A stretch of 64,000 nt of DNA, from the NCBI GenBank assembly GCA_944386195.1, contig CALXAD010000004.1, positions 11,996-75,995 of the forward strand, written 5' to 3'. Position numbers and translations under genes: made by a program. Under the pieces are notes generated by a model that was given only the letters and a program-made list of their open reading frames with translations, searched no databases and was not told the DNA's origin. The stretch comes from an uncultured Clostridia bacterium (GTDB lineage Bacteria > Bacillota > Clostridia > TANB77 > CAG-508). Shown piece by piece: positions 28,357 to 49,416 of the stretch (positions are counted from its first letter, which is position 1; each line of letters starts with the position of its first letter).

Positions 28357-29976
28357 ATGAAAAAAATTGTAAAATTAAGTATAGGATTGATAATTTCACT
28401 ATTTTTCATATTTATATGTAAATCTACATATGCAGCCTATACAACAAGTGGAGAATATACATATAATGACTTAGATGATGGAACTATAAGTATTGTTGAA
28501 TACAAAGGAAATTCAAAAAATGTTGAAGTTCCAAGCACAATAGACTCAAAAAAAGTAACGAAATTAGAATTATGGGCATTTAAAGACAATTCTACTGTAA
28601 CAACAATTGTATTGCCAGAAGGACTAACAACAATAGAAGCATATGCATTTGATGGATGTTCTAATTTAACTACAATTAAATTACCTTCTACTTTAAATTA
28701 TATAAGTAGACTATTTATTGAAGAATGTCCAAAACTTACAAATTATACTATACCAGAAGGGCTAACTAAAATAAGTAATGGAGATTACCAAAGAGTTGTA
28801 AGTGTAAATATAAATGGTAAGTATAATTATGATATGGCAAAAGAAGCAGTAGAATTAGCAAATCAAGAAAGAAAAAAAGAAGGACTAGAACCGTTAAAAA
28901 TAGATAATAGTTTAATGGAGTCTGCAATGTTAAGAGCAGCAGAACTATCAATATATTATAAACATGCTAGACCTGATGGAGCAGAAATTTTTAGTGTTAA
29001 TAACAAAGTTGATGGTGAAAATATAGGATGTGGTACATATATTATAACTGCAAGCAAGATAACAGAAGAATGGATGAATTCACCAGGACATAAAGCACAA
29101 ATTTTGAAATATACATATAAATCTATAGGAATAGGATGCTATATTAGTAATGGAAGAAGTTATTGAGTACAATTATTTTCAAGAGATAATTCAAGTAATG
29201 AAAACACTTTGACAGGTGAAAAAGAAGTAAATAATAAAATACAAGTTGCAACAGATAAAGGATATATAAATCCTAAAATAGAAGGATTAAAAGATATTAA
29301 TACATTAGCTATTGGGGAAACATTATCTCCAACATCAGTAAAAAATGTAAATGCAGGCTATAACTATAATTATACAAACATAGCACTATCAGATTTAACA
29401 TGGAAGAGTTCTAATGAAAATATATTTACAGTAGATAAAAATGGTACAATAAAAGCTAAAAATATTGGAAATGCAGTTCTTACCGCAAGTATTGGTGAAT
29501 ATATTGCTACATTTAATGTTTCTGTAATTATACCTTTAAAATCTATAGATATTGAAAAAAACGTAACACTAGAAACAGGAAATACATATCAATTAACAGT
29601 AAAATATAATCCTACAAATACAACTGAAAATACTAATGTAACTTGGAGTTCAAATGATTCATCAGTTGCAATAGTAAATTCAAAAGGACTTGTAACAGCA
29701 ATTGGAAAAGGTACAGCTACTATTACAGCAAAAGTTGGAGAACATACAGCAAATTGTGAAGTTACAGTAAAATTACCATATTTAAAAGGTGATATGGATA
29801 AAAATGGAGAGATAACTGCTTATGATGCATATTTAGTTAATCTAATATATGAAGATGGAAGAATACCAACTGATGAAGAATTAGAAATCGGAGATATTGA
29901 TGGTAATGGAGAACTAACAGCATTTGATGCATTTAAAATAAATGTAGCATATGAAAATGGAGAAATGTTAGAATAA
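28357..29976 (+). CDS. Secreted CAP/SCP (YkwD-like) domain - LRR - Big_2 - dockerin protein, with one in-frame TGA (29164-29166)
   Basis: AAAGGAGGG RBS and a signal peptide. CAP motifs NQERKKEGLEPL and EWMNSPGHKAQIL. After the TGA the same frame continues with Big_2 repeats and the dockerin GDMDKNGEITAYDAY...GDIDGNGELTAFDAF. Confidence 0.75.
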
Positions 29977-30013
29977 TTTATATGGTAACCATAAGATAAA
30001 AGGGGGAAATATT

Positions 30014-48598: not shown

Positions 48599-48621
48599 AT
48601 AAAAAGAAAGGACTGGAAGTT

Positions 48622-49416
48622 ATGGCAAAACACGCTAAAAGGTATGCTAAAAGTCCAATAGATGCCAGAAAAACGGAAAGAAGAAAAAGAAAATCAAATA
48701 ATAATAAAATGCAAAATATATTATTAATCATTTTTATTATTATATTTTTAGTATCTGGTTTTATATTACTAAAGTGGTTTTTAGATACAAATAAGTCAGA
48801 GGATACGTATAAAGAATTAGCACAAGAAGTAGTAAGTGTTAATGAAGAAAATGCAGATGAAAATACAATCGATTTTGAAAAATTAAAATCTATAAATCCT
48901 GATGTTGTAGCTTGGATAAAAATCGATGGAACAACAATTAATTATCCAGTAATGAAAACAACTGATAATAATTATTACCTAAAAAAGAATTTTTATAAAG
49001 AATATGATGCCTGTGGATCATTGTTTTTAGATTACAAAAGTAATTTAACTGATAAGAATATAGTTATTTATGGACACAACATAAAAAGAGGAATCATGTT
49101 TGCAGATTTAGAAAATATTGCAAATGGAAAACTAGGGAATAATATAAATATAGAATTATATATGCCAGATAGAAAAATGAATTTTAAAGTCTTTTCAAGT
49201 TATAATATAGATCCAGAAGATTATGCTATTAATACATCAATTACAGAAAATGAATTAGATGAATTTAAGACAACATTAAAAGAAAGAAGTAGTATGGATT
49301 TTGAAAGTGAGTATGAAAATACAAATCAAGTATTAACACTTTCTACTTGCGATAGAACAGGAAAGAAAAGAGTCTTAGTTCATGCTGGATTAGAAGAAAT
49401 TCGTTATAACCAATAA
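48622..49416 (+). CDS. srtB: Class B sortase
   Basis: N-terminal TM anchor. SrtB-type segment VAWIKIDGTTINYPVMKTTDNNYYLKKNF...GSLFLDY. Catalytic TLSTCD motif. Confidence 0.85.
   Translation: MAKHAKRYAKSPIDARKTERRKRKSNNNKMQNILLIIFIIIFLVSGFILLKWFLDTNKSEDTYKELAQEVVSVNEENADENTIDFEKLKSINPDVVAWIKIDGTTINYPVMKTTDNNYYLKKNFYKEYDACGSLFLDYKSNLTDKNIVIYGHNIKRGIMFADLENIANGKLGNNINIELYMPDRKMNFKVFSSYNIDPEDYAINTSITENELDEFKTTLKERSSMDFESEYENTNQVLTLSTCDRTGKKRVLVHAGLEEIRYNQ

Follow-up and report, generated by a model that had tools for sequence, protein, structure and literature searches.

That cohesin and dockerin modules are not confined to cellulolytic organisms has been recognized for many years. Non-cellulosomal uses include the toxin and glycosidase complexes of Clostridium perfringens, and the cases described are mostly isolated modules within enzymes or modules for which no partner has been identified. 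The closest described arrangement to the one considered here is that of Ruminococcus flavefaciens FD-1, in which four genes encoding transglutaminase-like proteins with dockerins and one encoding a leucine-rich repeat (LRR) protein with a dockerin lie in tandem (ORF01263-01267, group-4b) and share one dockerin subtype, and in which a single-cohesin scaffoldin, ScaE, is anchored by sortase (PMC2930009). The Ruminococcus bromii amylosome is a cohesin-dockerin assembly put to a non-cellulose use in a gut Firmicute (PMC4611034). Here we describe a locus in a 64,000-nucleotide stretch of DNA from an uncultured Clostridia bacterium (contig CALXAD010000004.1; "the window" denotes the whole of this 64-kb stretch), in which seven genes encoding dockerin proteins are followed by one encoding a cohesin-bearing scaffoldin and one encoding a sortase. 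The locus probably constitutes a surface-display system that is self-contained and non-cellulosomal, built on cohesin-dockerin pairing and borne by an integrative island of 32.5 kb.

The genes of the locus form a tight, co-oriented run on the + strand of the AT-rich window (~27% G+C), extending from position 28357 to 49416, with intergenic gaps of 29-90 bp and a strong Shine-Dalgarno site ahead of each gene. No + strand terminator-like site was detected across 27.8-47.7 kb. Together, the short gaps, the ribosome-binding sites and the lack of terminator-like sites amount to an operon-like layout, and the display genes may well be transcribed as a single unit. A promoter scan was uninformative in DNA of this composition (156 sites vs 158 in shuffles). 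Similarly, searches of Rfam at both gathering and permissive thresholds revealed no riboswitch or other RNA family within the island, and thus no link to a c-di-GMP riboswitch of the kind known for sortase substrates in Clostridioides difficile; there is no tRNA in the window.

The anchoring part of the locus consists of a scaffoldin and a sortase:

45634-48555, + strand: anchoring scaffoldin, with a signal peptide, one cohesin, nine Big_2 domains, a low-complexity linker, SPKTG, a hydrophobic segment and RKKFRK (Pfam and reading of the sequence).
45724-46143, + strand: cohesin module, scaffoldin residues 31-170 (PF00963, 46.3 bits; AlphaFold2 (AF2) model; Foldseek).
48454-48468, + strand: SPKTG sortase-recognition motif, residues 941-945 (read from the sequence).
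48622-49416, + strand: class B sortase, with His151, the Cys243 of TLSTC and Arg250 (TIGR03064, 161.9 bits).

The proposal, made in an earlier sequence-only reading of this DNA, that the scaffoldin begins with a cohesin is borne out by both profile and fold. The N-terminal 171 residues match PF00963 over profile positions 3-139 of 139, with a score of 46.3 bits (cutoff 24.1), and an AF2 model of the module, built from 24 sequences, has a mean predicted local distance difference test (pLDDT) score of 90.5, with cohesins accounting for 50 of the top 50 Foldseek matches in the PDB. The model superposes best on type I cohesins, with TM-scores normalised to the target (TMt) of 0.80-0.84 and root-mean-square deviations of 2.2-2.4 Å; Foldseek E-values for the cohesin matches range from 6e-11 to 1e-6, and cohesins also come first in a phmmer search of the PDB. 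An exhaustive search of 1.84 billion representative proteins recovered 1661 relatives of the cohesin, of which the nearest single-domain relative is 38% identical; this search was used in place of a protein search with the 171-aa fragment, which returned nothing, the window's own protein included. A profile scan of the six-frame translation found no second cohesin in the window. The exact scaffoldin protein is encoded on 5 metagenome contigs.

A scan of the whole 973-aa scaffoldin misses the Pfam Cohesin match, which is found with the N-terminal 171 residues alone. Precomputed Pfam tables likewise list no cohesin in this scaffoldin or in the anchors of two related metagenome contigs, L116 and L117, and such scaffoldins are probably under-annotated in databases.

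Following the cohesin are nine Big_2 repeats, counted from the sequence (Big_2, 361 bits), and the protein ends in SPKTG-DIAVEIFVSLMVISGLGIAVIV-RKKFRK, which is the sole sorting signal in the window. SPKTG conforms to (S/P)PxTG, the established sorting motif in substrates of SrtB from C. difficile (PMC4155245, PMC5569036). The neighboring sortase scores 161.9 bits against the srtB model TIGR03064, for which the cutoff is 153.75, carries GHN151, TLSTC243 and R250, and has as its best PDB sequence matches proteins that are nearly all annotated as SrtB or srtB-family. The adjacency of the two genes and the specificity of C. difficile SrtB suggest that this sortase would cleave SPKTG and transfer the scaffoldin to peptidoglycan.

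Upstream of the scaffoldin gene, the seven dockerin proteins, designated g1 to g7 in gene order, each end in a dockerin module:

29776-29973, + strand: g1 dockerin module (26.5 bits as an isolated module; module alignment).
32453-32650, + strand: g2 dockerin module (27.0 bits as an isolated module; module alignment).
35153-35350, + strand: g3 dockerin module (26.9 bits; module alignment).
38250-38447, + strand: g4 dockerin module (25.8 bits; module alignment).
40025-40222, + strand: g5 dockerin module (27.0 bits as an isolated module; module alignment).
41707-41904, + strand: g6 dockerin module (24.3 bits; module alignment).
45347-45544, + strand: g7 dockerin module (29.8 bits; module alignment).

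A six-frame motif scan locates paired DxDxNG...D loops at the C-termini of seven open reading frames (ORFs), which end at 29976, 32653, 35353, 38450, 40225, 41907 and 45547, and finds no further paired C-terminal loop motif in the 64 kb. Each module contains two canonical 12-residue Ca loops, with the D-x-D-x-N-G-x-x-T-x-x-D residues in both segments, and its two halves resemble one another, GDMDKNGEITAYDAYLVNLIYEEG and GDIDGNGELTAYDAFKINVAYENG matching at 15 of 24 positions as read from the module alignment. The 66-residue modules are mutually 73-89% identical in protein and 78-91% identical in DNA, while the bodies to which these modules are attached are mostly unrelated otherwise; a similarity of this degree across otherwise unrelated proteins is far beyond chance. 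Against a Pfam Dockerin_1 cutoff of 22.9 bits, whole-protein scans place four of the seven above threshold (g3, g4, g6 and g7, at 24.3-29.8 bits), and g1, g2 and g5, which score 20.5-21.7 bits as whole proteins, reach 26.5-27.0 bits as isolated modules, such that all seven modules pass when scanned alone. A protein search with the seven modules returned four tiny fragments and is too insensitive for counting other proteins of this kind.

The bodies that these modules terminate are as follows:

28357-29976, + strand: g1, with a signal peptide, LRR_5, CAP, two Big_2 domains and a dockerin; a nonsense allele (Pfam; intact in 7 other contigs).
30014-32653, + strand: g2, with a signal peptide, a transglutaminase-like Cys-His core (sub-threshold), LRR_5, an Ig-like region and a dockerin (LRR_5, 180.8 bits).
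32690-35353, + strand: g3, a tandem paralogue of g2 with the same architecture (LRR_5, 186.6 bits; Dockerin_1, 26.9 bits; blastn).
35421-38450, + strand: g4, with a signal peptide, two large LRR_5 blocks, an unknown domain and a dockerin (LRR_5, 546.9 bits; Dockerin_1, 25.8 bits).
38480-40225, + strand: g5, with a signal peptide, a putative CHAP-like papain-fold domain, two ricin-type lectin domains and a dockerin (RicinB_lectin_2, 152.7 bits).
40267-41907, + strand: g6, with a signal peptide, LRR_5, Transglut_core and a dockerin (Transglut_core, 43.9 bits; LRR_5, 94.8 bits; Dockerin_1, 24.3 bits).
41948-45547, + strand: g7, with a signal peptide, four internalin-type LRR blocks, each after a single EF-hand-like loop, and a dockerin (LRR_4, 86.2 bits; Dockerin_1, 29.8 bits).

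The signal peptides, judged by eye and unscored, predict that the cargo proteins are secreted. An in-frame TGA at 29164-29166 interrupts g1 at the Trp of the C-terminal 'YWVQLF' motif of its CAP domain, leaving one ORF (28321-29166) with the signal peptide, LRR_5 and CAP but without a dockerin, and a second (29209-29976) with both Big_2 domains and the dockerin but without a signal peptide. This codon is TGG in seven of eight other metagenome contigs, where the 539-aa ORF is intact, and TGA in the window and contig L089 only, the polymorphism being a G-to-A change from TGG to TGA. Reading of TGA as Trp is ruled out: TGA ends four other genes in the window, and the genetic code is thus standard. 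Since the two ORFs belong to one gene, the locus contains seven dockerin genes, with the scaffoldin gene eighth and the sortase gene ninth. The sequence-only reading, which took the split gene for two, had counted eight, nine and ten; it had correctly identified the C-terminal dockerin modules and their consensus, as well as the place and nature of both the anchored cohesin protein (cohesin, sorting signal, 45634-48555) and the class B sortase (48622-49416, TIGR03064 above cutoff).

Genes g2 and g3 arose as a tandem duplication, with 75% nucleotide identity across 2.9 kb by blastn. With a Pfam Transglut_core cutoff of 23 bits, the transglutaminase-like assignment is solid for g6 (43.9 bits) only; g2 (19.5-21.7 bits) and g3 (14.4 bits) fall below the cutoff, and the SGDCW...GHRNV...D motif is kept in both. 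The N-terminal domain of g5 has no Pfam match at E<=1 and no sequence match in the PDB. Homologues of g5 that are 36-42% identical, including proteins P0156 and P0157, are annotated as CHAP (PF05257), and seven homologues all retain C67, H119 and N139. An AF2 model of the domain (pLDDT 87.6) has CHAP endolysins as its best Foldseek matches, though weak ones (E ~1e-3; TM-score normalised to the query, TMq, 0.28-0.46). An NlpC/P60-like (CHAP-like) identity for this domain is thus a plausible, still tentative assignment. For the ricin domains of g5, the greatest similarity is to domains joined with GH25 lysozyme, amidase, NlpC/P60 and SH3 modules in cell-wall hydrolases. In g7 (1199 aa), single EF-hand- or dockerin-like Ca loops (DxDxDGxIxxxD) occur at 42200, ~43000, 44207 and 44678, ahead of the LRR blocks; three come from the motif scan, that at ~43000 was read by eye in the translation (VDLNNDNEISKYEMEQL), and one has a sub-threshold Pfam EF-hand match.

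Pfam scans of the seven cargo proteins and the scaffoldin, confined to the window, detected no glycoside hydrolase (GH), polysaccharide lyase (PL), carbohydrate esterase (CE) or CBM3 (family 3 carbohydrate-binding module) domain, in agreement with the earlier statement that the dockerin proteins lack carbohydrate-active catalytic domains. Of the repertoire that had been listed for them, the BspA-type and internalin-type LRRs, ricin lectins, CAP and Ig-like domains stand, and the NlpC/P60-like and transglutaminase-like cores hold to the lesser extents described above. The role attached to that repertoire, host adhesion and proteolysis, is a guess. Adhesion to a host or to other cells is suggested by the LRR_5, internalin-type LRR and CAP domains, and bacterial cell walls as a target by the CHAP-like, Amidase_3 and ricin modules of this and related loci, modules characteristic of wall hydrolases. 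The repeated appearance of peptidoglycan hydrolases among the cargo of related loci points to bacterial cell walls at least as strongly as to a host.

Exact copies of the window's proteins were found only in ENA and Logan metagenome assemblies, and similar loci occur in other uncultured Clostridia, on contigs L004, L005, L006, L007, L116, L117 and L118. Contig L004 encodes a scaffoldin of identical length and architecture, ending in SPHTG and preceded by a gene for a Transglut, LRR_5, Big_2 and dockerin protein. The cargo of L116 comprises a protein of that same composition, a CHAP, ricin and dockerin protein and an orthologue of g5, which are accompanied by a cohesin-plus-dockerin adaptor, a cohesin-Big_2-TPKTG anchor and a sortase; the gene sets of L117 and L118 are similar. 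More distant are L005, L006 and L007, whose cargo includes an Amidase_3, Big_2 and dockerin protein, a ricin and dockerin protein and a giant LRR_5 and dockerin protein. These last three are the useful yield of a contig profile scan whose alignment included the first Big_2 domain, such that most of the 80 loci recovered are irrelevant Big_2 proteins. No carbohydrate-active enzyme (CAZyme) was seen among the cargo of the related loci. The L116 locus (L116:1-21791) lies between type III CRISPR RAMP genes and cas1/cas2/cas6, and resembles a cassette that has entered a CRISPR-Cas locus.

Comparison of these loci reveals that cohesin and dockerin types have been replaced in concert. Specifically, the bodies of the g5 orthologues are 74% (L117) and 61% (L116) identical to that of g5, while their dockerins are only 23% and 31% identical, respectively. 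Similarly, the L004 scaffoldin is 57% identical to that of the window across the stalk and 37% across the cohesin, with a neighboring dockerin at 36%, and the L116 and L117 cohesins share no similarity with the window cohesin detectable by BLASTP, though the first Big_2 domains that follow them are 49-59% identical. Within each locus, one dockerin type is common to all cargo proteins. Exchange of both partners together, with bodies and stalk conserved, argues that the cohesin and dockerins of each locus are matched pairs that would bind one another specifically, and constitutes the strongest indirect evidence for such an interaction.

The display operon lies within an island whose borders are defined by the following features:

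21650-54157, no strand assigned: island of 32,508 bp with imperfect terminal inverted repeats (14/14 core, ATCTGATGACGAAC); absent from contigs L112 and L114, occupied in L098-L103.
21538-21649, + strand: 5' fragment of cbiO, its first 37 codons (VIELNNVCFSYNNEKQTLSNINIKIEDNESVGIIGAN), severed by the island (translation; continuous with 54158 onward in L112 and L114).
21643-21649, no strand assigned: left copy of the 7-bp core GCAAATG, the attL crossover region (7-nt overlap of two blastn segments in L112 and L114).
52352-54136, + strand: large serine recombinase of 594 aa at the right end of the island (Resolvase, Recombinase and Zn_ribbon_recom; phrog_95 integrase, 358.6 bits).
54158-54164, no strand assigned: right copy of GCAAATG, attR (same blastn overlap).
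54158-54778, + strand: 3' part of cbiO, beginning inside the Walker A motif, ANGAGKST... (ABC_tran match from profile position 30).

The 37 codons missing from cbiO are found 32.5 kb upstream, directly after cbiM-cbiQ, and joining of the two parts restores …GIIGANGAGKST…, the Walker A motif. Two metagenome contigs, L112 and L114, which came to light as carriers of the exact 217-aa protein encoded in the flank, have an uninterrupted cbiO (241 aa) and flanks 97.5-98% identical to those of the window; their flank alignments meet exactly at GCAAATG, and the empty sites are thus precise and scar-free. The occupied right junction is present in six contigs (L098-L103). Exact matches to the attB 26-mer in JGI metagenomes were rejected as empty sites, as they lie in seven unrelated ABC ATPase genes (24-39% protein identity). 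The predicted attP is …GATACGGTGG-GCAAATG-CACCCCATATC…. The recombinase ends 21 bp short of the right junction and matches PF00239 (121.1 bits), PF07508 (60.0 bits) and PF13408 (40.0 bits); prophage integrases in IMG/VR share 35-53% identity with it, and the ABC ATPase gene remnant follows directly 3' of its stop. The cohesin module itself has no match in IMG/VR. Taken together, the split cbiO, the 7-bp repeat, the precise empty sites and the three-domain recombinase prove, at the sequence level, the claim that the system rides on a serine-recombinase island, and "mobile", as used here, denotes the observed insertion polymorphism. Island sequences are 98.7-99.99% identical across samples, compared with 97.5-98% for the chromosomal flanks.

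The cbiO gene is the last of a cluster (16848-21649 and 54158-54778) that encodes Ni_insertion (LarC-like), AIRC (LarB-like), NAD_synthase (LarE-like), CbiM and CbiQ domains, with Pfam labels taken from the 100%-identical contig L091. Since the island splits cbiO, carriers would, for as long as the element stays in place, lack the ATPase of what appears to be an operon for nickel uptake and the nickel-pincer cofactor.

The remainder of the island comprises the genes listed below, together with small ORFs downstream of the display operon, between the sortase and the recombinase region:

21663-22277, + strand: helix-turn-helix (HTH) regulator of the Cro/C1 type (HTH_3, 23.1 bits vs cutoff 23.0; HTH_19, 23.1 vs 30.2, below cutoff; PHROG transcriptional regulators).
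22326-22895, + strand: RadC-like JAB protein (PF04002, 103.5 bits).
22908-24026, + strand: island-borne, full-length S-adenosylmethionine synthetase, MetK (three MetK Pfam domains; phrog_1569, 476 bits).
24161-25738, + strand: amidohydrolase (PF07969, 281.8 bits).
25847-26293, + strand: BclA C-terminal (C1q-like) domain protein (PF18573, 39.4 bits).
26535-27812, - strand: IS110-family transposase, a secondary insertion just upstream of the display operon, the element spanning ~26411-28094 (PF01548, PF02371).
50607-51101, + strand: small regulator of the sigma-70 region-4 type (Sigma70_r4_2, 27.3 bits; TIGR02937, 37.9 bits, below cutoff).
51679-52143, + strand: HTH protein (weak Sigma70_r4 and HTH_23 matches).

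The family to which the island MetK belongs occurs in phages as well; in the protein collection, the MetK cluster is encountered less often than the flanking housekeeping genes. Two BclA C-terminal-domain genes are present in the window, one outside the island (14097-14627) and one inside (25847-26293), and these are ~79% identical in DNA. The IS110 copy is found in the window, L091 and L095, and is absent from L093, L094 and L096, where the BclA_C gene directly precedes g1; most metagenome assemblies break at this copy. A 55-bp target duplication at the IS110 copy was considered and rejected, the apparent overlap being only 28/55 identical. Scans of the larger non-operon island ORFs (those of at least 90 aa) with Pfam and PHROG recognized no phage structural or packaging gene and no type IV secretion system or relaxase gene, and a prophage or integrative and conjugative element origin is accordingly not supported.

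Family knowledge, applied to the parts list and the evolutionary coupling described above, suggests how such a system might operate. The cargo proteins and scaffoldin would be secreted through the Sec pathway, and SrtB would cleave SPKTG and link the scaffoldin covalently to peptidoglycan, with the nine Ig-like Big_2 domains holding the single cohesin well beyond the wall. Each stalk would then capture one dockerin protein in a Ca-dependent manner, with the seven cargo proteins competing for one socket and the cell presenting an assortment of seven exchangeable heads on a common stalk. The near-symmetric dockerin segments may additionally permit binding in either orientation. The large serine recombinase would have inserted the whole kit, along with its regulators, into cbiO, and a recipient of the island would thereby gain a complete display system in one event.

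Several observations weigh against reading the locus as a self-contained display system. The census of dockerins and cohesins covers the 64-kb window, which leaves room elsewhere in the genome for dockerin proteins, possibly CAZymes, or for additional cohesins. Dockerin_1 scores exceed their threshold by a few bits, and a dockerin profile has no match in the PDB at E<=0.01. A search of IMG/VR found neither the attP junction (as a 28-mer) nor an excised circle, and the pseudogene state of g1 together with the IS110 copy immediately upstream renders expression in this strain uncertain. Finally, contig L093 carries a metK-to-g2 segment colinear with the window (94-99% identity) but has a different left neighbor, a highly acidic protein and a DAGK_cat gene (L093:1-1417) in place of the island HTH and RadC genes, a stretch matched by none of the other sequences compared; L093 is either a variant of the island or another genomic context. 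The extent of the census leaves a place for a conventional polysaccharide-degrading complex, of the cellulosome or amylosome type, of which the locus would be the anchoring end, with enzymes and perhaps multi-cohesin adaptors encoded elsewhere and the seven genes serving as accessory, non-catalytic members. The true cellulosome of R. flavefaciens FD-1 includes such accessory clusters as well as the single-cohesin, sortase-anchored ScaE (PMC2930009), proteins combining a cohesin with a dockerin, as expected of adaptors, are encoded by L116 and L006, and the ricin lectin domains of g5 bind carbohydrate. We nevertheless regard such a complex as unlikely, given that GH, PL and CE domains are missing from all of the ~20 dockerin proteins inspected, in the window and in six related loci, whose catalytic domains are instead of the Amidase_3, CHAP and transglutaminase-like kinds, that the system arrives complete on a mobile island absent in sister strains, and that the single cohesin is accompanied by no CBM3-type or X-module.

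It could also be argued that the cohesin and dockerins are not partners, the dockerins acting as Ca-dependent stabilizing or wall-binding tails or binding another receptor, the cohesin binding a host or bacterial ligand, and their proximity reflecting shared regulation only. The marginal dockerin scores would fit such a view, and Peer and colleagues reportedly described, in 2009, many non-cellulosomal dockerin- and cohesin-like modules without an obvious partner. This is quite improbable, however: cohesin and dockerin types change together between loci in which stalk and cargo bodies remain 57-74% identical, one dockerin type serves all cargo of a locus, and the cohesin model superposes, at TMt 0.8-0.84, on cohesins solved in complex with dockerins, a combination hard to explain without a specific pairwise interaction. 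A further concern, raised by the nonsense codon in g1, the IS110 insertion, the missing attP junction and the lack of recognized phage structural or conjugation genes, is that the locus is the decaying, non-functional remnant of an old insertion that is no longer expressed or mobile. Every other ORF is intact, however, the longest at 1199 aa, the recombinase retains its full length and all three domains, g1 itself is intact in most strains, the island is more uniform across samples than are its flanks, and the empty site is scar-free, and decay of this kind is thus very unlikely.

If the self-contained display system is accepted, its target may be other bacteria. Speculatively, and with considerable doubt on our part, the locus could encode a horizontally transferable, contact-dependent adhesion-and-lysis apparatus directed at neighboring bacteria, in place of polysaccharide breakdown or host adhesion. 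LRR and lectin heads would bind the surface of a neighbor, CHAP-, amidase- and transglutaminase-like heads, held some nine Ig domains off the producer's wall, would cut its peptidoglycan or surface proteins, and locus-specific cohesin-dockerin pairs would prevent cross-loading of co-resident systems. An apparatus of this sort would represent a new class of mobile device for interbacterial competition, or predation, in gut Clostridia.

A literature search identified no paper on a mobile, non-polysaccharide cohesin-dockerin system. The locus offers a compact, matched example, in which one cohesin and one sortase accompany seven cargo proteins within defined borders, and it indicates that an entire surface-display platform can travel as a single unit on a serine-recombinase island. 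Natural controls exist in the form of sister strains with empty sites and of related loci with the same bodies and different pairs, making the function of non-cellulosomal systems directly testable. Additionally, cohesin-dockerin pairs that appear, from their sequences, not to cross-react while occupying similar scaffolds could be exploited as orthogonal components when surface display is engineered in Gram-positive bacteria.

Compared with phage-type serine integrase elements, the island shares a three-domain recombinase at one end, an intragenic insertion, a short core repeat, imperfect inverted repeats and a precise empty site. It differs in that no phage structural, replication or conjugation genes were recognized in it and in that a 21-kb surface-display operon dominates its cargo. 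The anchoring end resembles the SrtB system of C. difficile, which also pairs a class B sortase with an SPKTG signal on a long, repetitive surface protein, and sortase structures 5gyj and 4ux7 are among the PDB matches. The SrtB substrates of C. difficile are direct adhesins, however, and its sortase is chromosomal and serves several of them; we know of no such substrate that bears a cohesin or acts as a dock for other proteins. Among non-cellulosomal modules, the Archaeoglobus fulgidus cohesin 2xdh appears in the Foldseek matches of the window cohesin. Unlike the non-cellulosomal cases noted at the outset, the window holds what is predicted to be a complete, matched and anchored system with a sortase of its own, in one mobile unit.

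With the classical type I pairs of Clostridium thermocellum, C. cellulolyticum and C. acetobutylicum, the locus shares the cohesin fold, two 12-residue Ca loops whose starts lie 34 residues apart, and an internal two-fold symmetry of the dockerin that is compatible with a dual binding mode. In contrast to a classical cellulosome, it has no multi-cohesin primary scaffoldin, CBM3 or glycoside hydrolases, and attachment is predicted to occur through sortase instead of S-layer homology (SLH) domains. The recognition positions of its dockerins read A/P-Y where classical dockerins have S-T, and its cohesin is 13-23% identical to solved cohesins. The cargo of the R. bromii amylosome consists of GH13 amylases, whereas that of the window is adhesin-like and peptidase- or amidase-like and is carried on a mobile island.

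Closest of all is R. flavefaciens, with which the window shares a single-cohesin scaffoldin attached to peptidoglycan by sortase (a prediction in the present case) and, as in group-4b, head-to-tail genes for signal-peptide proteins with transglutaminase-like or LRR bodies and a common dockerin subtype. The ScaE cohesin (2zf9) is itself among the Foldseek matches of the window cohesin, although the latter superposes better on type I cohesins (TMt 0.8-0.84) than on this type III cohesin (0.57). ScaE operates within a large cellulosome of >200 dockerin proteins, many of them CAZymes, carries an LPXTG signal and binds the X-dockerin of ScaB or CttA. The window system, by comparison, stands alone, with seven cargo proteins, one cohesin on a stalk of nine Big_2 domains, an SPKTG signal beside a class B sortase, no CAZyme, and a mobile island as its vehicle.

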